This document shows positions 3,658 through 13,073 of a stretch of 24,000 nt of DNA, piece by piece. This stretch comes from Idiomarinaceae bacterium HL-53. Lineage in GTDB: Bacteria; Pseudomonadota; Gammaproteobacteria; Enterobacterales; Alteromonadaceae. Both the position numbers and the translations under genes were made by a program. The stretch covers positions 942,659 through 966,658 of the forward strand of contig LN899469.1 of NCBI GenBank assembly GCA_001458075.1, given 5' to 3'. The notes below the pieces were generated by a model. That model searched no databases, was not told where the DNA came from, and saw nothing but the letters and a program-made list of their open reading frames with translations. Every line of letters starts with the position of its first letter. The stretch's first letter is position 1.

Positions 3658-4344
3658 TTAGATGGAAACCGTCCAATCTGGTAAGTGTTCAATGGCCCAG
3701 CGTTCAAGAACATGATCTAACCCTGAAAAAATCATTAACGCGAGAGCAAGTAAGGATATCCCAAGAAGTATGCGGCCTATTTTCCCAGAGCTTCTTAGGG
3801 CATTCAGTTTTTTACCTGCAGCATAGCCTATACCTAGTAGTGGTAGGGCAGTGCCGAGCCCAAAGCTTAACATGACTACGAAGGCGAAGATCATGCTTTC
3901 GCCCGCAGATGCCAGCGCGATAGCGGCCCCCAATGTGGGGCCGACACAGGGCAGCCATACCAAACCAAGTGTTGAACCTACAATAAATTGAGAAGCACTT
4001 GAACTGCCGTCTACATGAGGAGCATTCGGAGTTACTTTGGCCATCAACATGGAAAACCAGCTATTTAACGCGGGAATGAGCAGAACTGCGGCGAGAAAGA
4101 GCATGAAGAATGCCGCGCCCGTGCGAAGTAGTTGAGGTGAAATACCCGCACTCAACAACAAGAAGGTAAATAAACTGCCCCCTAATGCGAATGCGACAGC
4201 AATTCCGGCGGCTAAAAACCACAGGCCACTTTTGGAGGCACGCATGGAAGATGCGGTCACCGCTGGTACCATTGGCAATACGCAAGGCGACAACAAACTA
4301 AGCACCCCCGCCACAAAGGCGAGGGGAATTGAGGTGAATTCCAT
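3658..4344 (-). CDS. CcdA/DsbD-family transmembrane thiol:disulfide electron transporter (228 aa)
   Basis: This is a polytopic membrane protein with the two family-defining Cys motifs, LLSPCVLPMVP and WLPCVGPTLG. It lies 2 nt downstream of a secreted thioredoxin-like gene. Confidence 0.8.
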   Translation of the reverse strand: MEFTSIPLAFVAGVLSLLSPCVLPMVPAVTASSMRASKSGLWFLAAGIAVAFALGGSLFTFLLLSAGISPQLLRTGAAFFMLFLAAVLLIPALNSWFSMLMAKVTPNAPHVDGSSSASQFIVGSTLGLVWLPCVGPTLGAAIALASAGESMIFAFVVMLSFGLGTALPLLGIGYAAGKKLNALRSSGKIGRILLGISLLALALMIFSGLDHVLERWAIEHLPDWTVSI

Positions 4345-4346
4345 AA

Positions 4347-4760
4347 TTATTCGCTCTCGTGATTTCTTAGTTCACCAAAAATAGTGCGCTCACGAGTTTG
4401 CGCTACACTAAACCAGAGCTGTTCTTCACCACGGTACAGAATAAGGGTCGATTGACGCGGCGCCCGAAAGTAAGTCACCCAATCTTTTTGTTCATCGAAA
4501 TTCACTTCAAAGACACGAATGGAACTTTGTGGATTATCTTCGAAATACTTGTTTAACACCCGTTGTTGTCGTTTACAGGTTGGGCACCAATCGGCAAATA
4601 CATCGATTAGAAAAAGTTCATTGTTAGCCACGGCGGTGCGATAGGCCTCTTCAGTAAAATCAGACTTTACTGCATTGAGAGCAGGAAAGTCGTCGGCATT
4701 TGCAGTTGTTGCACTTAGCGCAAGTAATAGTGTAGCTAGGGCGAGACGATAAAGTTTCAT
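4347..4760 (-). CDS. Periplasmic thioredoxin-like protein (137 aa) with signal peptide and a CPTC active site
   Basis: The N-terminal signal MKLYRLALATLLLALSATTANA is followed by a thioredoxin-fold motif FADWCPTCK. An AGGAG RBS lies upstream, and the gene forms an operon with the CcdA-like gene. Confidence 0.8.
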   Translation of the reverse strand: MKLYRLALATLLLALSATTANADDFPALNAVKSDFTEEAYRTAVANNELFLIDVFADWCPTCKRQQRVLNKYFEDNPQSSIRVFEVNFDEQKDWVTYFRAPRQSTLILYRGEEQLWFSVAQTRERTIFGELRNHESE

Positions 4761-4856
4761 GACAGTTCTCCTTGATTGAAATTGAGAACATCGTAAAGGT
4801 TGGCTCGTTAAAACTTGTGATCAAAGCACACGGTTGTGTCTACAAAAACGCCGATT

Positions 4857-5795
4857 CTAATTTTTCAGGGCCAATAATTCTGGTGGTAAGGCCGCGACTG
4901 AGCGCTCAATCATGCTCCGAATAAGTGTGCGATCGGCCTTTGGCTCTAGGTCAATCGCGGTACCCTTCTTGCCGGTAGGCTTTGCTGTAAAAGCGGTTGC
5001 ACAGTTTGCCGCATGCGCATGACTGTCCATTTCATGAAGTCGCATTTCGCGGCTGCATACCGGGCAATAGATGAAATCTCCTGCTTGTTGATCGCTGCGC
5101 TGCACCACTACGGGTCCGCAAGATTTACAGTGATGCAGAGGAATCCCTTCTTGGCTATGACCAAGAACAGTATCGAAGGTGCCTTGTTGTACTTCGTGAA
5201 TAAAAAGCTCTCCCCAAAAGCGATTGAATTGGCTATCTAAATTCTCAGCAATAATGTTGCAAGCTCGTTCTTTCGTCATGGGCTTTCTATAGGGGCGTTG
5301 GCTCGTCATTGCATCAAATGCATCACAAATGCCTACAATCACTGAGTCTACAGGAATCATGCTACTGTTGAGTCCGTGTGGATAACCCTTCCCGTCAGGT
5401 CGTTCATGGTGAAGTTCTACAGCGGCGCCCACTAGGTTCGCTAGCGGATGCCCAGCTAGCATTCGACCCCCTGCTTCTGGATGGGTTTTTATCTCTTCAT
5501 ATTCGCGGTCGTTTAACTTGCCGGTTTTTCTGAGTACTTGATCTGAAACAGCGATTTTCCCTAAGTCATGCAAAAAGCCACCGAGGGCTATGCGCGCGAC
5601 ATCTGCAGGAGGAAGTTTGCCCGCCGCAGCCAGCTTTCTCGCATACTCAGAGACTCTCCATAAATGGCCGCCAGTGTAAGGGTCCTTGGCTTCGACAAAC
5701 CAAGCCATTACCATGAGGCTAGCAAACAATTCCTTGGTGAGCTCCGCTGGTTCGACAGCTGGTTTGGGTTCGAATTTTTGTAGCCATTTGCGCAT
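4857..5795 (-). CDS. HD-GYP domain phosphodiesterase (c-di-GMP type), stand-alone, with a C-terminal CxxC-x17-CxxC ribbon (312 aa)
   Basis: HD motif FLHDLGK, HHERPDGKGYPHGL (HD-GYP signature) and ICDAFDAMTSQRPYR are present. The C-terminal tail is HHCKSCGP...FIYCPVCS. No REC or other N-terminal sensor domain is recognisable. Confidence 0.85.
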   Translation of the reverse strand: MRKWLQKFEPKPAVEPAELTKELFASLMVMAWFVEAKDPYTGGHLWRVSEYARKLAAAGKLPPADVARIALGGFLHDLGKIAVSDQVLRKTGKLNDREYEEIKTHPEAGGRMLAGHPLANLVGAAVELHHERPDGKGYPHGLNSSMIPVDSVIVGICDAFDAMTSQRPYRKPMTKERACNIIAENLDSQFNRFWGELFIHEVQQGTFDTVLGHSQEGIPLHHCKSCGPVVVQRSDQQAGDFIYCPVCSREMRLHEMDSHAHAANCATAFTAKPTGKKGTAIDLEPKADRTLIRSMIERSVAALPPELLALKN

Positions 5796-5901
5796 AACAA
5801 AGCACTTTATCTGGGATTGATAGATCCACTCTCGTAGAGTTCTCTTTAGTTAGCAATGACAGTTGCACCGAAACAATCCACAGGAACACCGGCGCGTTGA
5901 G

Positions 5902-6825
5902 CTAGTCACCGCGAATTCGCTTGATATACTCACCAGGTGATACGCCAAGCTCTTGTTTAAAAAATCGAATGAAGGAGGTTGCCGACGCATAACCTACTTG
6001 TTCAGCAATTAACTCGATCGGTAATTTTTGTTGGTGTAATAAGAATCGTGCCCGCTGTAAGCGCAGAGCATTGAGTAGAGATTTAGGGCTCATGCCGGTT
6101 TTGTTGTGAACACGATCGGCAAATGCACTACGCGATAAAAACGCCTTGGCCGCCATTGATTCAACTTTCCAATTGCCTGCGGGGTTATCAATAATCGCCA
6201 ACACCACCTGCTTTAATTGAGGGTCTTTAAGAGCAGCGAGTATGCCTTGTTGAGCATTTTCATTGGCAATCACATTCCGTAAAACCTGTAAAACTACAAC
6301 GTCGCTCATGCGACTGATGGCGGTTTCAAATCCGGGCCGCTTCGCTTCTGACTCTTGTTCAATGAGTTCAACCACAGCACGCAATGAACCACCTTGCTCT
6401 GCCGCTGGAATAACACACCAATCTGGCAATGTTTGGAACACAGTTTCGGTGACGGTGTCATTCACTTCAATGTCGTAGCACACCAAACCTTGATCTCCCT
6501 TCTCTGGTGTGCAGTATGGCTTGAATTTTCCTGTCTCTAGGGCGCTATCGCTAGCCTCTGAACTCAGCCAATGGGTCACAGAGCGAGCAAAGAAAATGGC
6601 GTCGCCAGCTTGTAATTTTACCCGCTGATGCTCACCCGGCACCGTAAGCCAAGCTTGCCCATAGCTGAGGATATGTAGCGCAGGTTTTCCACTACTTTCG
6701 GCTTTTAATGCCCAGCCTTTGCAGAGCCCCGATTGGAAATGCAATGACGCACCAAAGGCGAGTTGGGCAATTAAGCCTTCTAATTCATTCGGTGCTTCTG
6801 TTGATTGCTTCGGCGTGTTAGTCAT
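5902..6825 (-). CDS. AraC-family transcriptional regulator with an N-terminal cupin-like domain; start trimmed to ATG 6825
   Basis: The C-terminal dual HTH is SRSAFADRVHNKTGMSPKSLLNALRLQRARFLLHQQKLPIELIAEQVGYASATSFIRFFKQELGVSPGEY. An AGGAGC RBS lies 5 nt upstream of ATG 6825, whereas the ORF-track start at 6891 has no RBS. The gene is divergent from the 6905-10597 cluster. Confidence 0.85.
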   Translation of the reverse strand: MTNTPKQSTEAPNELEGLIAQLAFGASLHFQSGLCKGWALKAESSGKPALHILSYGQAWLTVPGEHQRVKLQAGDAIFFARSVTHWLSSEASDSALETGKFKPYCTPEKGDQGLVCYDIEVNDTVTETVFQTLPDWCVIPAAEQGGSLRAVVELIEQESEAKRPGFETAISRMSDVVVLQVLRNVIANENAQQGILAALKDPQLKQVVLAIIDNPAGNWKVESMAAKAFLSRSAFADRVHNKTGMSPKSLLNALRLQRARFLLHQQKLPIELIAEQVGYASATSFIRFFKQELGVSPGEYIKRIRGD

Positions 6826-6904
6826 TGTGCTCCTACGCGCAATTGTCGAACCTATGAATACAGAAATAAGGTTAGTGTACAACAGTCTCATTGTTGGGGT
6901 TTAT

Positions 6905-7360
6905 ATGAATGATTTCATAGTTTTAGCAAGGCCGCATCCTTTTGTTGTTGGAGAAATGGCTACTTTTTTAGCTGAAATGAACGTAGGAGTGAGGAAACTC
7001 AATCACTTAGATGAGTTGAGTGAGGTTTTAGTTAATGCGAAAGCTGCTGTTATTTCGACCGCCGTAACTTCGCCCATTGGTGAAGATGCACCTACAGTTT
7101 ATGCAAAAATTCGAGAGCTGAATGCAAATATCCCAATAGTTTTTGCTGGGCTTCTTCCGCTTGAGAGAACGTATAAGATGATTGAACACATGATGAAGAA
7201 CGAACCTACTCCACATGGTTTAGTGGGCATACATGAGCGAGTAGGTAACCCTAAACTAAATAGCTCCGGTACCGCGCTCTATTTTCATAAGGAAGATCTG
7301 TTACAACTAGAGTATAGAAAAATGGCTTCTAAGTTATTGAAGCAGCATTGCGGACTTTAA
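6905..7360 (+). CDS. Hypothetical protein (151 aa), no recognisable family; alternating beta/alpha pattern
   Basis: The ORF is in frame with track ORF 6719-7360. I trimmed it to ATG 6905 because the upstream part overlaps the AraC gene on the opposite strand. It is the first gene of the co-directional cluster, and I recognised no motifs. Confidence 0.45.
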   Translation: MNDFIVLARPHPFVVGEMATFLAEMNVGVRKLNHLDELSEVLVNAKAAVISTAVTSPIGEDAPTVYAKIRELNANIPIVFAGLLPLERTYKMIEHMMKNEPTPHGLVGIHERVGNPKLNSSGTALYFHKEDLLQLEYRKMASKLLKQHCGL

Positions 7361-7380
7361 CATGTGGAATCGTCTTCAAA

Positions 7381-7587
7381 ATGTCATATTTAATCGTTAA
7401 AACAGGAGTCGGAGTTAGTTTAGTGGTTGGTACGGTACTGAACTTGATTAATCAGTGGGCTGCGATATGGGGCACAGACACTCTGGTTGTGTGGCAACTG
7501 ATATTAAATTATTTGGTACCCTTCACGGTGTCCGTGTACAGTGGTTGGCAACAAGAACACCGAATGAAAACCACTAAGGTGTCGTAG
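7381..7587 (+). CDS. Small two-TM membrane protein, NrtS-like (putative nitrate/nitrite transporter family), 68 aa
   Basis: VVGTVLNLINQ and LNYLVPFTVSVYSG resemble, from memory, the small NrtS family. I chose ATG 7381 over the GTG-type start at 7348. The family assignment is tentative. Confidence 0.4.
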   Translation: MSYLIVKTGVGVSLVVGTVLNLINQWAAIWGTDTLVVWQLILNYLVPFTVSVYSGWQQEHRMKTTKVS

Positions 7588-7608
7588 TTTAAGTAACAAA
7601 GGTATTTC

Positions 7609-8142
7609 ATGGCGAGTGCACAAAGAGAAGTTAAAGAGGCAAGTTGCCCATTAGTCGCCGAGAATCTAAATCAGCTCAGCGGTTTGTTATCCATCCTGAA
7701 CAAATTGACGGCACAGGATTACACTCGTAATGACTTCTATGCGGGTAGCTCGGCAATTGCGAGCCATGTTCGCCATGTTCTCAATCACTATGAATTATGG
7801 CTACGAGCGCAGACCTCAATGCTGCTGAATTATGAGAAAAGAGAGCGAGATATACCCGCTGAAAAGTGTCTAGATGCGGCAAAATCTTGGCTTCAAAACC
7901 TTTTAGAGCAGCTCCAAGAACGGGAGTTCGATTTGCACGCAGAGCTAAAAGTGAGCGAGTGTGGCGGTGCGCTTTCGGTCGTGTCTACGGTCGGCAGAGA
8001 AATGGCCTTCTTGTATAGCCATACTGCGCATCATTTGGCGCTGATTAAACAGCAAGCCAATGAACTAGGTTATGAGCTTTCTGCAAACTTAGGTGTTCAC
8101 CCCTCGACATTACGTGCACAAGGCAAGGCATGTGCACAATAA
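7609..8142 (+). CDS. DinB-like (four-helix-bundle, His-triad) family protein, 177 aa
   Basis: His-rich helices SHVRHVLNHYELWL and FLYSHTAHHLALIKQQANELGYEL...GVHPSTL fit the DinB/YfiT-like pattern. The 3' end overlaps the next gene by 13 nt. Confidence 0.5.
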   Translation: MASAQREVKEASCPLVAENLNQLSGLLSILNKLTAQDYTRNDFYAGSSAIASHVRHVLNHYELWLRAQTSMLLNYEKRERDIPAEKCLDAAKSWLQNLLEQLQEREFDLHAELKVSECGGALSVVSTVGREMAFLYSHTAHHLALIKQQANELGYELSANLGVHPSTLRAQGKACAQ

Positions 8143-9716
8143 CGTGGAGAATTGCTCCTGACCTCCAGCACAACAGTCAGAAATTAACCATTGTTGCTAA
8201 CCGAGATGAGAGTAAGGAGCGAGCTCAAGCGCTCCCGCCGCAATCGTTTCAGAGCCCCAGTAATACGTTTGTTATGCCCGTGGATCCACAGGGAGGCGGA
8301 AGCTGGATAGCGACGAATGAACATGCACTGACGATCGCGTTATTAAATTATTATGAAGCTGATGCTAATCATAGCGAAGAGCCCAAACGTAGCCGTGGGC
8401 TGCTTGTCAAAGACTTGGCCGCTTGCAAAACGCTGTTGCAAGCCGAAAATTATTTACACGCCGCGCAGGTAACGGAGTATGCACCTTTTCACTTGCTCGT
8501 TTTTGCTGGGGTGCAGCACCCTATTTGGTGGAGTTGGAATGGGAGCCAGTTACAACAACGATTGCTAACAACGGGAGTATTAAGTACTTCGGCGTGGGGA
8601 TCTCGCTGGGTTCCAGAGTTAAGAGCTCAGTACCTGCAACGACATTTACACACCATGCGAGAAGACTCAGAGCACTTGCAACTTATGCGGCAAAGTAAGC
8701 CGTACAGCAATAGCATTGCCGTTGCAATGCAGCGCACAGATGCCATGACGGTTAGTACCACAGTCATAAAGGTGACCAGCGCAGACACGCAACTCACTTA
8801 CTATGAGGGGCATCCCAGCCAGCAGTCACATGGCAACGCAATGTTCTTAGTCAGACACAAGTCGGCACTCCATACGCCGGTAGCACACGATCAAAGTACT
8901 TGGGTGACACGCATTCAATTTAAAACTTTGTTTCAGGAAAAGGCTCCGCAACTTGCCCAAAGCCTGCCGAGTATTGCCTTTCCTCTTCTACGTTGGGTAT
9001 TGAGAGAGCGAGCGCTCAACTCGCTTTTGAGTCGTTTTGACTATGTGGCTCCAGAACAATTTTGCGACACAGCACTGCGCGAAATTGGGGTGAACGTGAA
9101 CGTCGAGGCGGAACGTTGGCCAGAACAAAGTGAGCGGCCCGTATTTTTGAGTAATCACCCGTCTGGTGGCCTAGACGGCATTGTGCTGATTGCCATGCTT
9201 AAAAAGCGATATCCTGATTTGAAGGTAGTTGCGAACGATGTACTTCAACAAATAGAGCATATGAAAGATTGGGTGATTCCGGTAAATGTGTTCGGCAATG
9301 CCAAGCGCTCGTTAAGTAACCTGCAAAAGGCATTCGATGGTGTGGAGCCGATTCTTATGTTTCCTGCGGGAAAAACTGCCAGACGCAATGCTTTGGGCGA
9401 ATTGGATGATGGCGATTGGTCGGGGGTGCCTGTGAAGTTAGCCGCGCGCCACGAACGAACGGTCGTGCCCCTTTTTCTGCAGGCCTATAATTCGAAAACA
9501 TTTGATTTTATTGCGAAATGGCGTCAACGTGCGGGAATAAAAATGAATATTGAAATGTTACTGTTAGTACGCGAGTTAATGAAACCCGCTTGCCGACAGT
9601 TTCGGGTCCATCAGTATTCGCCGTTACAACCTAAAGCATTAGTGTCGCTTTTAGCGCAGCAGAGCCCCGGCATGGCGGTTAAAGAAATGAGTTATGCCTT
9701 GCGCAAAGGAGTGTGA
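8130..9716 (+). CDS. Fusion protein: N-terminal NRDE (TANGO2-like) domain plus C-terminal GlsA/OlsA-type lyso-aminolipid O-acyltransferase (PlsC superfamily), 528 aa
   Basis: N-terminal evidence: the protein begins Met-Cys (MCTITW) and carries ANRDE at residues 23-27 (NRDE codons at nt 8199-8210), GGGSWIA, SRGLLVKD and the hallmark NRDE-family layout over ~240 aa. C-terminal evidence: LSNHPSGGLDG (His343, nt 9156-9158), MFPAGKTARRN, VVPLFLQAYNS and NIEMLLLVRELMK match the acyltransferase family partnered with N-acyl amino acid synthases. It is a single uninterrupted ORF. Confidence 0.75.
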   Translation: MCTITWRIAPDLQHNSQKLTIVANRDESKERAQALPPQSFQSPSNTFVMPVDPQGGGSWIATNEHALTIALLNYYEADANHSEEPKRSRGLLVKDLAACKTLLQAENYLHAAQVTEYAPFHLLVFAGVQHPIWWSWNGSQLQQRLLTTGVLSTSAWGSRWVPELRAQYLQRHLHTMREDSEHLQLMRQSKPYSNSIAVAMQRTDAMTVSTTVIKVTSADTQLTYYEGHPSQQSHGNAMFLVRHKSALHTPVAHDQSTWVTRIQFKTLFQEKAPQLAQSLPSIAFPLLRWVLRERALNSLLSRFDYVAPEQFCDTALREIGVNVNVEAERWPEQSERPVFLSNHPSGGLDGIVLIAMLKKRYPDLKVVANDVLQQIEHMKDWVIPVNVFGNAKRSLSNLQKAFDGVEPILMFPAGKTARRNALGELDDGDWSGVPVKLAARHERTVVPLFLQAYNSKTFDFIAKWRQRAGIKMNIEMLLLVRELMKPACRQFRVHQYSPLQPKALVSLLAQQSPGMAVKEMSYALRKGV

Positions 9717-9718
9717 AC

Positions 9719-10597
9719 ATGAAGCCACTTGCCGAATCTATTTCAAAAGCAGAGCTCGCTTCAGAAATTGCCCGTCTCACCCCCATGAAGCATTTTCGTG
9801 GCTTGGATATTTACCAGGTGCACGGAGACGACGCTCCACGCTTAATGTTAGAAATTGGGCGTATTCGTGAGCTCGTATTTCGTGGAGCAGGCGCCGGGCG
9901 TGGAGAAGCACGTGACTTAGATCATTTGGATACCAGTCAACTTGGTTATAAGCAACTGATTGTTTGGGACCCAGTCACTGAAGAGCTTGTGGCCATGTAT
10001 CGCTTTCAAAATGGCGAACATGCGCTTACCGGCGGCGATGAAGTATTACGCACGTCTTCATTGTTTACCTACACCGATCGTTTTCGAAAAGATTGGCTGC
10101 CACACGCCATTGAGCTTGGGCGCTCGGTTGTAAATCCTTTTGCAAAACGAAAGACTCTGGGGTTCTTTGCCGTTTGGCAAGGTTTGGGGGCGCTCATTCA
10201 AGCCTACCCTCAACTGAGCTGCTTCTTTGGTAATGTGACTCTTTACAAAAATTTCCCAAAAGAAGTGCTCGATACTCTCGTGGCCACTTGTGAGAATTGG
10301 TACGCGCCCCCCGAACCACTTATGCAAGCCAAATTAGCGTTGAAATACAATAGCCCTGCGAAACCGCTGCCGCGACCGGAAGACGATTCCCCGCTCACCC
10401 GTATGCAAGCATTAAAAGAAGCATTGGCAGCACATGAAGCTCGCATACCACCTATATTACAAAGTTATATGGGGCTCAGTAACGACATTTATTTGGGTGA
10501 AACAGCGGCAGATCAAGATTTCGGTGATGCGTACGAAATTGCGATTGTTGTACCTATCAAAAACATTGCACCCGATGTGTTGAAGAAGTTTCTATAA
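9719..10597 (+). CDS. GNAT-fold N-acyltransferase of the OlsB/GlsB (N-acyl amino acid / lyso-aminolipid synthase, 'hemolysin-like') family, 292 aa
   Basis: IRELVFRGAGAGRGEARDLDHLD...KQLIVWD matches the family core motif. An AAGGAG RBS at 9706-9711 sits 7 nt before ATG 9719 (an alternative GTG at 9713 overlaps the upstream stop). The gene is translationally coupled to the acyltransferase fusion. Confidence 0.75.
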   Translation: MKPLAESISKAELASEIARLTPMKHFRGLDIYQVHGDDAPRLMLEIGRIRELVFRGAGAGRGEARDLDHLDTSQLGYKQLIVWDPVTEELVAMYRFQNGEHALTGGDEVLRTSSLFTYTDRFRKDWLPHAIELGRSVVNPFAKRKTLGFFAVWQGLGALIQAYPQLSCFFGNVTLYKNFPKEVLDTLVATCENWYAPPEPLMQAKLALKYNSPAKPLPRPEDDSPLTRMQALKEALAAHEARIPPILQSYMGLSNDIYLGETAADQDFGDAYEIAIVVPIKNIAPDVLKKFL

Positions 10598-10666
10598 ATT
10601 ATGCTGGTTGTGCGATGAGCTTGGGGCATCTAAGATACGCTTAGGTAAGTCATACATAGAGATGCC

Positions 10667-11569
10667 ATGGACGCAACAACGATCGGTGCAAAAATAACAA
10701 GCAAGCTGAAACAGGTTTGGGCAGTGAGCCAAGATTTTGTTCAGTTCTTTTCTCAGCGCTTTGCACAAGAAAAAATTAATGTAACCGCAGGCCACCTCAC
10801 CTATGTGAGCCTGCTTTCTCTTGTACCTTTGCTCGCAGTTATTTTCTCGATGTTTGCTGCATTCCCCATGTTTGAGTCGCTGCGCCAAAGTATTCAAGAG
10901 GCTATTTTAGCGAACTTGGTGCCAACCAGTGGGCAAGCGATCGAAGGTTATTTAAATCGTTTTGTAGAGAATGCAAACCAAATGACAGCCGTGGGCGCAC
11001 TATTTCTATTTGTGGTGGCGCTGTTAATGATCTCTGCTATCGACAAGGCGTTGAATACGATATGGCGGGTGCAGCAACGCCGTCGCATGATTATTTCACT
11101 GGCTGTTTATTGGATGGTGATCACGTTAGGTCCCGTGTTGGTGGGCGTAAGTATTGCTGTAAGCGGTTATTTGTTCTCGTTAACTGCACTTGCAGACGAC
11201 TATGTGTCGGGCGTTCGCTCGGGACTGCTTGGGATCGTGCCGATACTTTCAATGTTCGTTGCATTTCTCCTTCTCTATGTGACCGTTCCGAATAAAGTTG
11301 TGCGAGTTCGTCACGCATGGTGGGGCGCAGCGCTCGCGGCTGTTCTGTTTGAGTTAGCCAAAAGTGGGTTTGAGGCTTACATAACCTACTTTCCCTCTTA
11401 TCAGCTTTTATATGGCGCGGTTGCAGCAATCCCAATCTTAATTGTTTGGATCTACCTGTCGTGGAGCATCATATTATTGGGTGCCGTGCTCTCTGCTACC
11501 ATCGAAGATTATGTGGATCCCGAGCGTTACGACCGTGTTCCGGAAGAAGAAGTTGAGGCGGTTGAATGA
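10667..11569 (+). CDS. yihY: YihY/BrkB-family inner-membrane protein (formerly mis-annotated as RNase BN), 300 aa
   Basis: AGHLTYVSLLSLVPLLAVIFSMFAAFPMF, NQMTAVGA, ALNTIWR, YWMVITLGP and FPSYQLLYGAVAAIPILIVWIY are close to E. coli YihY. It is followed by dtd, as in E. coli. Confidence 0.9.
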   Translation: MDATTIGAKITSKLKQVWAVSQDFVQFFSQRFAQEKINVTAGHLTYVSLLSLVPLLAVIFSMFAAFPMFESLRQSIQEAILANLVPTSGQAIEGYLNRFVENANQMTAVGALFLFVVALLMISAIDKALNTIWRVQQRRRMIISLAVYWMVITLGPVLVGVSIAVSGYLFSLTALADDYVSGVRSGLLGIVPILSMFVAFLLLYVTVPNKVVRVRHAWWGAALAAVLFELAKSGFEAYITYFPSYQLLYGAVAAIPILIVWIYLSWSIILLGAVLSATIEDYVDPERYDRVPEEEVEAVE

Positions 11570-12009
11570 TAGGTTTAATTCAGCGCGTAAAAGAAGCGCG
11601 AGTTGAGGTCGACCATCAGATTGTTGGGCAAATAAACCAAGGGATCTTGGTTTTTCTCGGCGTAGAGAAGAGTGACACCGACGCTCAAGCCATTGAGCTT
11701 GCACGCAGAATAGCCGGATATCGCATTTTTTCGGATAGTGACGACAAAATGAACTTAGATGTGAAAGACATCGGGGGCAAAATTTTAGTGGTGTCACAAT
11801 TCACCTTGGCAGCCGATACCCAAAAAGGCCGGCGTCCGAGCTTTTCTTCGGCTAGCTCGCCAGCTTCAGCACAACGCTTATACCATGTATTTTGCGACGC
11901 ACTTCGGGCTCATGAAGTCGCAGTGGCCACGGGGCAATTTGCTGCCGATATGCAAGTGTACCTAGTGAACGACGGACCTGTTACATTTTATCTCACCGCA
12001 AAGACATGA
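11566..12009 (+). CDS. dtd: D-aminoacyl-tRNA deacylase, 147 aa
   Basis: MIGLIQRV...GILVFLGVEKSD...RIFSD...KMNL...ILVVSQFTLAADTQKGRRPSF is the canonical Dtd sequence. ATGA overlaps the yihY stop. Confidence 0.95.
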   Translation: MIGLIQRVKEARVEVDHQIVGQINQGILVFLGVEKSDTDAQAIELARRIAGYRIFSDSDDKMNLDVKDIGGKILVVSQFTLAADTQKGRRPSFSSASSPASAQRLYHVFCDALRAHEVAVATGQFAADMQVYLVNDGPVTFYLTAKT

Positions 12010-12119
12010 GCTCAGGCGAGCGAATGATGTAATCGGTTTAACTGAACCAAAACTAATTGTTTAATCGTACATAAGCTATATACTTACGTTATACACATCG
12101 CTGTTGCGGGAGAGCGTTT

Positions 12120-12344
12120 ATGAAGAAAACAATCACGTTTGCGATTCTACATTTTAGTATCGCATTCACAGTAACCTATCTAATTACGGGCAGTTGGGTG
12201 CTAGGAGGATTGGTTGCGCTAATTGAACCCACGGTGAACACAATTGCCTATTTCTTCCATGAGAAAGTATGGGAGCGTATTGAGCACAAGCGTGCCCAGC
12301 GAAAGCTGCAGGCCTCGAACCCCGAGGCCTCCTTTTCGGTATAA
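12120..12344 (+). CDS. DUF2061-family small membrane protein, 74 aa
   Basis: KTITFAILHFSIAFTVTYLITGSW...ALIEPTVNTIAYFFHEKVWE matches the DUF2061 pattern. A GGGAGAG RBS lies upstream. Confidence 0.7.
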   Translation: MKKTITFAILHFSIAFTVTYLITGSWVLGGLVALIEPTVNTIAYFFHEKVWERIEHKRAQRKLQASNPEASFSV

Positions 12345-12347
12345 CTC

Positions 12348-13073
12348 ATGTCTACCATCGCTATTTTCGGCGCCGGGGGCGGGATTGGCAAAGCCCTCAT
12401 CCAAACGCTCGCGAGAACGAAACCAAACACTAATATACGAGCGGTGAGTTCTCAGGCGCAGCCAAACGAGTTCGAATCCAATCCGCACCTAAGCTGGCAG
12501 CAAACGCCCCACGAGATTCCCGCGCTCGAGGCCTTATGTGAAGCATGGCATGAAGATGGGGTTGTGCTCGATGGTGTGGTATCGACCATTGGTTGGCTAC
12601 ACCGAGATGCGTGGATGCCAGAACGCAGAATTGAGCAATTGAATGAAGCGCAGTTGAATGCCTATTTTCACGACAACGTGATTGTACCCAGCATGCTGTT
12701 AAAAGCACTCAAGCCGCTGTTTCCCAAAAAGTCCCCGTCATTCTTTGCGCAACTTAGTGCGAAGGTCGGTAGTATTGGCGATAACGAATTAGGCGGTTGG
12801 TACGGATACCGTGCTTCGAAAGCGGCATTGAACATGATGTTGAAAACCGCAGCCATTGAGTTTAAGCGTACGCACAAGCAACTGGTGATTAGTAGCATTC
12901 ACCCGGGTACGACCGACACCAAACTATCCGAACCCTTTCAAGAGCGTTTACCGGCCGATAAACTTTTTTCTGCAGAACAAACGGCAGAACGTATGTGGGA
13001 TGTCATCGCAAAATTGAAGCCTGAAGACTCAGGGGGATTCTGGTTTTGGGACGGGACTCGATTGCCCTGGTAA
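12348..13073 (+). CDS. Short-chain dehydrogenase/reductase (SDR), CsgA/C-factor-like subgroup, 241 aa
   Basis: The cofactor motif is IFGAGGGIGKAL and the catalytic motif is YRASKAALN, with HPGTTDT downstream. It starts 3 nt after the DUF2061 gene. Confidence 0.85.
   Translation: MSTIAIFGAGGGIGKALIQTLARTKPNTNIRAVSSQAQPNEFESNPHLSWQQTPHEIPALEALCEAWHEDGVVLDGVVSTIGWLHRDAWMPERRIEQLNEAQLNAYFHDNVIVPSMLLKALKPLFPKKSPSFFAQLSAKVGSIGDNELGGWYGYRASKAALNMMLKTAAIEFKRTHKQLVISSIHPGTTDTKLSEPFQERLPADKLFSAEQTAERMWDVIAKLKPEDSGGFWFWDGTRLPW

Follow-up and report, generated by a model that had tools for sequence, protein, structure and literature searches.

The window analysed here is a stretch of 24,000 nucleotides (nt) from Idiomarinaceae bacterium HL-53 (GenBank assembly GCA_001458075.1, contig LN899469.1, positions 942,659 to 966,658 of the forward strand), an Aliidiomarina genome of 2.74 Mb in a single contig. 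It exhibits a cluster of five plus-strand genes encoding a protein of 151 amino acids (aa), designated orf151, a small NrtS-like membrane protein, a DinB/YfiT-fold protein (DinB), a fusion of an NRDE/TANGO2 domain with an O-acyltransferase, and an N-acyltransferase. An AraC-family regulator is encoded divergently in front of them (Table 1). We interpret this locus as two gene modules, one for lipid synthesis and one for signalling, placed under the one divergent Cupin_6-type AraC regulator, and we regard this arrangement as probable. The core of the lipid module is a pair formed by DinB and the NRDE domain, and this pair recurs beside aminolipid synthase genes far outside the genus.

Table 1. 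Features of the aminolipid locus and its surroundings, in window positions; functional names are predictions.
Feature	Position	Strand	Remarks
HD-GYP phosphodiesterase, stand-alone	4857..5795	-	C-terminal Cys4 tail (C-x2-C...C-x2-C); PF13487, 106 bits
Cupin_6 + HTH_18 AraC-family regulator	5902..6826	-	open reading frame open to 6891
Divergent control region	6827..6904		78 nt; conserved box GGTTAGTGTA at 6870-6879
orf151	6905-7360	+	151 aa
NrtS-like membrane protein	7381-7587	+	68 aa
DinB/YfiT-fold protein	7609-8142	+	
NRDE-acyltransferase fusion protein	8130-9716	+	528 aa
NRDE/TANGO2 domain	8130..8840	+	PF05742; N-terminal third of the fusion
GlsA/OlsF-N-type lyso-aminolipid O-acyltransferase domain	8913..9716	+	PF19576; part of the fusion
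GlsB/OlsB-type N-acyltransferase	9719-10597	+	

The five open reading frames (ORFs) and their four junctions (from 5' to 3', gaps of 20 and 21 nt, an overlap of 13 nt and a gap of 2 nt) match exactly those given in an earlier reading of the same DNA made from the letters alone (the sequence-only reading). The compact, AraC-flanked layout that it described is borne out by the ORF positions together with the divergent Cupin_6/HTH AraC gene. Pfam and NCBIfam matches likewise confirm the yihY-dtd pair that it had placed immediately downstream, and these two genes adjoin the cluster directly on its 3' side. Terminators between the genes, which that reading had named as an argument against a joint cluster, were looked for, and the scan found no terminator-like site in the four intergenic junctions. 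The plus-strand terminator-like sites of the cluster, at 9004-9028 and 9450-9467, both lie inside the fusion gene, and the total of 9 terminator-like sites returned by the scan agrees with the 7.3 expected from shuffles. An Rfam search of positions 4000-12500 revealed no element.

The DinB-NRDE pair and the aminolipid synthase genes

The two 3' genes had been read as a complete pathway from an N-acyl amino acid to an acyloxyacyl aminolipid, and this assignment is supported. Residues 262-524 of the fusion protein match a GlsA/OlsF-type O-acyltransferase, with scores of 144.3 bits for PF19576 (residues 268-504) and 29.8 bits for PF01553. The catalytic motif H-x5-[DE] is read in the translation as NHPSGGLD, corresponding to the NHPLGGLE or NHPFGGVE of OlsF-like proteins. 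The N-acyltransferase matches PF13444 with 41.1 bits (cut-off 22.4) and its ATG is preceded by a strong AAGGAG; it is the sole PF13444 gene of the host genome. Judged from these matches the type of pathway appears clear, while the amino acid of the head group is not predictable from the sequence. The description as a plain two-enzyme pathway was correct as to the enzymes, but it overlooked the TANGO2/NRDE domain (PF05742) that occupies residues 1-203 of the larger one.

This N-terminal domain scores 60.5 bits against PF05742 (cut-off 22.6). Its residues M1, C2 and T3 and the motif N24 R25 D26 E27 are invariant among the relatives, and a Met-Cys start is found in all 80 related NRDE genes. A profile built from the NRDE sequences matches human TANGO2 in the PDB (8sv7 and 9bwa, E = 1.4e-4, residues 1-117), the similarity being weak past the first ~120 residues. 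TANGO2 was reached by the NRDE profile only; PDB searches with single sequences of the fusion, DinB or orf151 yielded no useful match. In the proposed pathway the domain is predicted to adopt the Cys-N-terminal-nucleophile (Cys-Ntn) fold. The fusion is uninterrupted by stops in about a dozen proteins of 510-605 aa, carried by Aliidiomarina, an Idiomarina genome bin, Alishewanella, Alkalimonas and Arsukibacterium. The database entry for the fusion gene of the host is 480 aa long and starts at the internal Met49, a choice that would remove Cys2 and the NRDE motif (window 8130-8274). Since the first 48 residues are conserved, we take the ATG at 8130, which overlaps the DinB gene, to be the true start.

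The DinB protein matches PF05163 above the cut-off (25.3 bits against 23). Its AlphaFold2 (AF2) model has a predicted local distance difference test score (pLDDT) of 91.1, and the top 19 matches of this model in the PDB are all DinB/YfiT proteins, with template modelling (TM) scores of up to 0.64. On the strength of the model we consider the family assignment sound. The model also shows an extra beta-hairpin at residues 112-127. Among 42 homologues R55, H56, Y75, R78, R80, R130, E131, H138, H141 and H142 are invariant and H53 is nearly so. The metal-binding histidine triad of the family (H56, H138 and H142, with an H-x3-H on a late helix) is present in this set, and DinB is accordingly a predicted metalloprotein.

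Within Aliidiomarina the lipid core, consisting of DinB, the fusion and the GlsB-like gene, occurs in 5 of 21 genomes, and the overlap between DinB and the fusion is kept in all five. For a broader view, 80 loci with relatives of the NRDE domain were taken from species-representative genomes and scanned with profiles made from the Aliidiomarina sequences. In 52 of the 78 loci that had enough sequence, the gene immediately 5' of NRDE is DinB-like and on the same strand. These pairs span Gammaproteobacteria, Verrucomicrobiota, Planctomycetota, Acidobacteriota, Gemmatimonadota, Spirochaetota and others. Their two genes overlap or are separated by at most 15 nt in 51 of 52 cases, and the identical 13-nt overlap is found in 14 loci. 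Where at least 5 kb was available on both sides, aminolipid synthase domains lie within 8 kb of the pair at 26 of 38 loci.

A check across the order, in which coordinates were compared by hand in an even sample of 201 genomes, gave a similar picture. The DinB subfamily is present in 52 genomes, with NRDE immediately downstream in 46 of them. A PF13444 gene occurs in 44 of these 46 genomes versus 86 of the 155 others, and at least 22 of the 46 have it no further than 3 kb from the pair, a lower bound because PF13444 as a proximity marker misses divergent synthases (the gene of the window itself reaches only 1e-10). The NRDE scores of the sample fall into two groups, one at ~1e-41 or better, comprising most of the DinB-linked genes, and one from 1e-6 to 1e-14 comprising the rest, with a single partial copy containing stop codons between them. 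By this division the DinB-linked NRDE proteins constitute a distinct subfamily.

A tree of the N-acyltransferase domains exhibits three clean groups: canonical OlsF, OlsF adjoining DinB-NRDE pairs, and a long-branched "split" clade of 8 enzymes, including the one described here, on a branch of 3.16 changes per site. The DinB-NRDE pair thereby adjoins two separate clades of aminolipid synthases. An origin of the split enzymes through recent fission of the neighbouring OlsF type is unsupported, the tree giving them a separate long branch. We also rejected a likeness to the stieleriacine/thalassotalic acid clusters for N-acyl tyrosines, which have ThiF-like and nitroreductase partners, not DinB-NRDE.

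The sequence-only reading had grouped DinB, orf151 and the NrtS-like protein as three unexplained additions to the pathway. This grouping does not stand: DinB belongs with NRDE, and orf151 and the NrtS-like protein form an independent module. From its conserved position and its overlap, DinB is translationally coupled to the NRDE gene as a core partner rather than an extra. Two recent reviews of aminolipids make no mention of NRDE, TANGO2 or DinB, and our literature search found no paper linking DinB-NRDE to aminolipids.

Outside the fusion clade, frequent neighbours of the pair are a DedA/VTT membrane protein, a small membrane protein, a secreted protein with a YHS domain, and a RimK-like ATP-grasp protein of ~375 aa that in some cases is fused to VTT and to an alpha/beta hydrolase. 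Examples are L097:5683-11406 (Vibrio mimicus), L017:4418-9451 and L055:8720-11338. At the V. mimicus locus the order is DedA/VTT, ATP-grasp-like, DinB, NRDE, YHS, small membrane protein and OlsF. This locus presumably corresponds to the VCA0646 locus of the sister species V. cholerae, where VCA0646 is an experimentally confirmed ornithine-lipid synthase (OlsF) induced at low salinity and ends a putative four-gene operon, VCA0649-0646 (PMC12186959). In the V. mimicus strain CAIM 602 the OlsF-like gene is split over two frames, 9606-10004 and 9889-11406 (L097:9606-11406), by a frameshift or an assembly error. Head-group extension is a candidate function for an ATP-dependent amide ligase placed next to an ornithine-lipid synthase. 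According to PMC12971839, the enzyme that transfers taurine to ornithine lipid with ATP awaits identification. A search of the host genome revealed no DedA, ATP-grasp-like, YHS or small membrane protein of the Vibrio type.

In five genomes a gene of the DinB subfamily lies within ~2 kb of an aminolipid synthase gene with no adjacent NRDE (G029:C1:636725-638852, G157:C1:3407473-3409441, G030:C2:160719-162678, G059:C3:610794-612767 and G122:C6:155697-157663). The first of these DinB genes contains a stop codon. Three small genomes that belong to one genus have a short N-acyltransferase gene (~260 aa) near DinB.

A possible role of the pair in O-acylation

In the pathway that we propose, the GlsB-like enzyme would N-acylate an amino acid with a 3-hydroxy fatty acid, and the C-terminal domain of the fusion would esterify a second fatty acid onto the 3-hydroxyl. 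The NRDE/TANGO2 domain and the coupled DinB metalloprotein would be a conserved accessory pair handling the acyl chain for this O-acylation. Such a role seems to fit best with an NRDE domain that is fused to a lyso-lipid O-acyltransferase. We favour a pair that binds or transiently carries an acyl thioester and presents the acyl group to the O-acyltransferase; alternatively, it might edit or hydrolyse the N-acyl amide. The acyl donor of OlsF-type enzymes has still to be determined (PMC12971839). In human TANGO2 the NRDE motif mediates the binding of acyl-CoA, and lysophospholipids increase when the protein is lost (PMC11867700). The crystal structure of TANGO2 points to a Cys Ntn hydrolase whose large amphipathic pocket is of lipid size (PMC13044924).

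Extended to the whole family, the proposal would be that NRDE/TANGO2 proteins are acyl-thioester-handling Cys-Ntn enzymes which, in bacteria together with DinB, load or present acyl groups to lyso-lipid O-acyltransferases. We put this forward tentatively, as a conjecture with the odds clearly against it. If it is true, the NRDE-acyltransferase fusion would be a "Rosetta stone" for human TANGO2 disease, and it would explain why lysophospholipids build up on loss of TANGO2 even though TANGO2 itself is no acyltransferase. TANGO2 deficiency causes a severe metabolic disorder in humans, and whether the protein works as a heme carrier, an acyl-CoA binder or a Cys-Ntn hydrolase is disputed. The fusion of a TANGO2-type domain to a lyso-lipid O-acyltransferase, within a pathway of three genes where DinB is the obligatory partner, offers a simple bacterial system for examining this type of function. 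The pathway could be transferred into E. coli, making the target of the domain approachable by lipidomics and mutagenesis. The pair would also add a conserved accessory component to aminolipid synthesis.

Several points weigh against the interpretation of the locus given so far. The equivalog cut-offs of GlsA, GlsB and OlsF are all missed, the O-acyltransferase scoring 188.3 bits for GlsA (cut-off 260) and 116.4 for OlsF (620), and the N-acyltransferase 197 bits for GlsB (300) and 150.4 for OlsF (620). The branch of the N-acyltransferase is very long, and a different N-acyl amino acid or a secreted lipid is conceivable as the product. The sampled genomes are kin, so that the counts overstate their statistical independence; DinB occurs without adjacent NRDE in 6 genomes, and about one third of the related NRDE genes lack a DinB neighbour. 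Human TANGO2, when purified, failed to act as a lysophospholipid acyltransferase (PMC11867700). The olsF promoter of V. cholerae is salt-regulated by itself and the upstream promoter is weak (PMC12186959), which indicates that tight co-regulation of the pair with the synthase is not universal. In Aliidiomarina sp. B3213, the closest relative, the lipid module likewise adjoins yihY-dtd, and the AraC gene is missing. The single transcript presumed for the cluster is deduced from spacing, overlaps and terminator-free junctions. Finally, we know of no NRDE protein that has been shown to carry out an enzymatic reaction.

One alternative explanation of the pair makes NRDE an amidase acting on the N-acyl bond and DinB a metal-dependent esterase for the piggy-back chain, so that the locus would encode both the synthesis and the breakdown or remodelling of the aminolipid. 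The closest structural relatives of TANGO2 are indeed Cys-Ntn amidases acting on N-acyl lipids, namely acid ceramidase, NAAA and bile salt hydrolase (PMC13044924). Chemically, the substrates of such amidases are close to N-acyl amino acids, and early DinB/YfiT structures were deposited as "putative metal-dependent hydrolases". We nevertheless consider this explanation unlikely: an amidase of the intermediate fused to the enzyme that consumes this intermediate would set up a futile cycle, hydrolysis is not known for any NRDE protein, and a one-to-one translational coupling with synthase genes is better suited to a biosynthetic complex.

A second explanation dissociates the pair from lipids altogether. 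DinB and NRDE would be an S-transferase and an amidase detoxifying thiol conjugates or electrophiles, comparable to mycothiol S-transferase with its conjugate amidase, and they would only be co-regulated with the aminolipid genes in a general response to oxidative or envelope stress. The structural matches of DinB include bacillithiol and mycothiol S-transferases and a mycothiol-dependent isomerase; the nearest named family of the regulator is the oxidant sensor RclR; and AhpD-like peroxidase-related, thioredoxin-CcdA and flavoprotein disulfide reductase genes recur near the loci. Against this stand the covalent fusion of NRDE to a lipid O-acyltransferase across a whole clade, the fact that DinB-NRDE tracks two different lineages of aminolipid synthases, and the occurrence of PF13444 genes in nearly all of the pair-bearing genomes. 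Moreover, no thiol biosynthesis or conjugate export genes recur beside the pair. Detoxification thus seems to us improbable, and acyl handling for O-acylation is retained as the preferred role.

The proposed signalling module and its control

No Pfam or NCBIfam family matches orf151, which the sequence-only reading had called an orphan. This label is not borne out, an exhaustive search having found 106 representative clusters of homologues, all of ~150 aa and, where named, all "hypothetical protein". The AF2 model of orf151 (pLDDT 93.7) has its best PDB matches among response-regulator receiver domains (E = 1e-4 to 1e-3, TM 0.5-0.6). Invariant residues are A8, R9, P10 and H11 after strand 1, S51 ending strand 3, and H148; among 53 sequences no conserved phospho-acceptor Asp or acidic pair was found at the receiver positions. 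Because a CheY-like fold is thus combined with a replaced acidic pocket, we classify orf151 as a pseudo-receiver and not as a member of the REC family.

The NrtS-like protein exhibits two hydrophobic segments and a marginal match to NF038050 (26.2 bits, cut-off 25). An NrtS-like gene is found beside or near orf151 homologues in six other contexts at 25.4-43.9 bits and in a seventh at 17 bits, below the cut-off. No nitrate/nitrite reductase or assimilation genes were found in window 4347-13073 or in the orf151 contexts examined. The name "nitrate/nitrite transporter" rests on a marginal score, without support from the neighbours.

The HD-GYP gene, which the sequence-only reading had left out of the cluster, shares its strand with the AraC gene and follows it downstream, and the contexts of its orthologues assign it to the same conserved gene set. 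The orthologues share 52-66% identity and an identical Cys4 tail; they lie directly between the orf151 and NrtS-like genes in two contigs (L100 and L110), and in another, L023, the orthologue heads the lipid operon. HD-GYP and orf151 were each found in 2 of 21 Aliidiomarina genomes, each time at the AraC-aminolipid locus. In Alishewanella longhuensis the AraC gene is followed, across the divergent region, by orf149, HD-GYP, NrtS-like, DinB, fusion, GlsB and AhpD-like genes. Another Aliidiomarina has only orf148, HD-GYP and NrtS-like genes; a Cupin_6 AraC gene is nearby, and lipid genes are absent. That HD-GYP lies between genes of the orf151 family and NrtS-like genes suggests an arrangement in which the receiver-like protein and HD-GYP are split. 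As judged from these contexts, an unnamed pseudo-receiver family can be defined whose travelling companions are a zinc-ribbon HD-GYP and an NrtS-like membrane protein, and the set may be a new input route into c-di-GMP signalling.

Homologues of orf151 are also found away from HD-GYP. The series orf151, TIGR03169-type flavoprotein oxidoreductase, NrtS-like gene and ECF sigma factor is seen in L102, from a Gallionella genome bin, and in L107, an unclassified metagenome contig. In L103 and L104, both betaproteobacterial contigs, and in the metagenome contig L106, an HPP-family protein takes the place of the NrtS-like one beside orf151 and the oxidoreductase, and a Cupin_6 AraC gene is close at hand. 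L103, L106 and L107 continue with genes for an ECF sigma/anti-sigma pair. In Microbulbifer, orf151 overlaps the NrtS-like gene. The operons headed by orf151 with the TIGR03169 oxidoreductase ("N-terminal to SelD" type) and ECF sigma factor (L102:5723-8116, L103:6001-9419, L106:4001-6595 and L107:4001-6609), which often have a Cupin_6 AraC gene and an AhpD-like gene nearby, look like a redox-stress signalling cassette; we found no published description of it.

The 5' part of the cluster had been thought by eye to be AT-rich and accessory in origin. The first point proved real but modest in a windowed computation, orf151 and the NrtS-like gene together having a G+C content of 0.413 against 0.475 for the genome (standard deviation 0.028, windows of equal size), in the lowest 2.7% of same-size genome windows. 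For orf151 the values are 0.404 overall and 0.34 at third codon positions (GC3). An accessory origin agrees with the narrower occurrence of orf151 in the genus as compared with the lipid core. The neighbourhood check is thus positive for the lipid core, which is kept in relatives, but the five genes are not one unit, since orf151 and the NrtS-like gene are distributed independently. Given the lipid-free contexts, the narrow distribution within the genus and the low G+C, we think that orf151 and the NrtS-like protein are probably an accessory insert or mobile signalling cassette rather than lipid-tailoring enzymes. Together with HD-GYP they would form a separately mobile module inserted at the locus, most likely connecting a redox or envelope signal to c-di-GMP turnover and expression, and probably without action on the lipid itself.

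Of the roles suggested for these two proteins by the sequence-only reading, the sensing of an inducing signal was the better guess; head-group modification and lipid flipping are unsupported in view of the lipid-free contexts. A direct part in the lipid pathway, for instance a small membrane protein flipping or exporting the lipid with orf151 as its cytoplasmic partner, would agree with the operon and promoter region that they have in common with lipid genes in three genera. It would agree also with the presence of different small membrane proteins and DedA/VTT proteins, possible lipid movers, at other DinB-NRDE loci. Yet both genes are missing from 5 of 8 fusion-type lipid loci, and a profile scan found neither in the 80 NRDE loci of other taxa. 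Conversely, orf151 and NrtS-like genes occur without aminolipid genes in the Gallionella bin, Microbulbifer, another Aliidiomarina and L107, and the two betaproteobacterial contigs pair orf151 with the HPP-family protein. A lipid-moving role is on this evidence quite improbable, and the two proteins are preferably read as a signalling insert.

The regulator matches PF12852 (Cupin_6) with 113.7 bits and PF12833 (HTH_18) with 75.5 bits. Its homologues begin at the Met encoded at 6826, which leaves a control region of 78 nt and agrees with the distance of about 80 nt estimated from the sequence. The nearest named NCBIfam family is RclR (NF040475), and the score of 121.6 bits is so far below the cut-off of 400 that the regulator is not counted as a member. 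A divergent orthologous Cupin_6 AraC gene is present at 7 of 8 fusion-type loci.

The control region contains a box, RGTTAGYSTA, ~25-50 nt upstream of the first operon gene at 5 of 7 orthologous loci, and this position holds irrespective of which gene heads the operon. A copy with one mismatch is found at the locus of Aliidiomarina minuta, and in L027 a related sequence lies on the opposite strand. The box occurs once in the window. There is no enrichment over the genome (13 sites against ~45 expected from composition), and the box was dropped as a regulon motif. A promoter scan of the 78 nt found no sigma-70 consensus.

Thioredoxin-CcdA, AhpD-like and disulfide-reductase genes recur around the loci of relatives, and hint at a redox signal. 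Four genomes have a thioredoxin-CcdA/DsbD pair next to the AraC-aminolipid locus (window 3658-4760, L014:10940-12072, L016:4482-5629 and L100:1095-2227); since these belong to two genera, the placement appears conserved and not incidental. In Alishewanella a bufferin-type cluster, BufA1-MbnB-HvfC-DoxX, lies between this pair and the AraC-aminolipid locus. The last gene of the Alishewanella lipid operon is an AhpD-like "peroxidase-related" gene (TIGR01926, ~50 bits, below the cut-off), which is also found near the orf148-HD-GYP-NrtS operon of the other Aliidiomarina (L014:5724-6266, L100:10587-11123 and L110:8066-8617 for the AhpD-like genes). The last gene of the A. minuta operon resembles it by position and N-terminal sequence only. 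The cluster of the window has no AhpD-like gene.

Comparison with known systems

The lipid module shares its two-step logic and its PF13444 and PF19576 families with the GlsB/GlsA glycine-lipid pathway of Bacteroides thetaiotaomicron and with OlsB/OlsA and OlsF (PMC12971839; PMC12186959). Known examples of OlsF are those of Serratia proteamaculans and of V. cholerae (VC0489 and VCA0646), and the gene order found here, O- before N-acyltransferase, is the domain order of OlsF. Unlike the Gls/Ols systems, the present one misses all of the equivalog cut-offs, has an N-acyltransferase in a long-branched clade of its own, and possesses an O-acyltransferase with an N-terminal NRDE/TANGO2 domain and a translationally coupled DinB gene. 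It is controlled by a Cupin_6 AraC regulator, and not by PhoB or low salt.

This regulator resembles E. coli RclR, the reactive-chlorine-responsive regulator divergent from rclABC, in combining Cupin_6 with an AraC HTH, in its divergent arrangement and in a match over nearly the whole model. It differs in its score, less than a third of the RclR cut-off, and in its target genes. In relatives of the locus a gene of the flavoprotein disulfide-reductase family lies beside orf151, and a parallel is provided by rclA, which adjoins rclR in E. coli.

The signalling module is comparable to the RpfG-type REC + HD-GYP regulators in that a receiver-fold protein and an HD-GYP are encoded together, adjacent in L100 and L110. 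In contrast to RpfG, orf151 and HD-GYP are separate polypeptides, Arg-Pro-His and Ser replace the phospho-acceptor Asp and the acidic pair, no histidine kinase is present, and the small NrtS-like membrane protein is a constant third partner.

DinB conforms to the DinB/YfiT superfamily, as known from Bacillus subtilis YfiT, Staphylococcus aureus BstA, the mycothiol S-transferase of Mycobacterium tuberculosis and the DinB-like iron-binding domain of EgtB, in its four-helix bundle and in the usual positions of its histidine set. It is distinguished by the extra beta-hairpin, subfamily-specific DYxxRxR and RE motifs, an obligatory coupling to NRDE, and a context with no evident thiol cofactor.

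Among NRDE proteins, HtpA (SO0126) of Shewanella oneidensis belongs to the same PF05742 family and has a gammaproteobacterial host as well, whereas it differs in its NRDE subfamily by score, its metal transporter neighbour, and the lack of a DinB partner and of any aminolipid link. A heme-trafficking function for the NRDE domain, as in HtpA or as proposed for TANGO2/HRG-9, with the lipid neighbours being incidental, takes its support from a bacterial NRDE-family protein reported to bind heme and to aid cytochrome c maturation (PMC10470608), and is very improbable here, given that a Shewanella-like genus of the 201-genome sample falls into the weak NRDE score group with no adjacent DinB, that SO0126 adjoins a metal transporter and not a DinB gene, that no cytochrome maturation genes recur near the DinB-NRDE pair, that heme binding was non-specific in the crystal study (PMC13044924), and that the role is challenged by a cross-species study (PMC12782551).

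Human TANGO2 (8sv7, 9bwa) and the domain described here have in common the Met-Cys N-terminus, the NRDE motif, the PF05742 match and the profile match, and a lipid or acyl-CoA connection has been proposed for TANGO2 (PMC11867700, PMC13044924), as it is here for the NRDE domain. Unlike its human counterpart, the bacterial domain has no mitochondrial targeting; it is fused to a lyso-lipid O-acyltransferase and always accompanied by a DinB partner.

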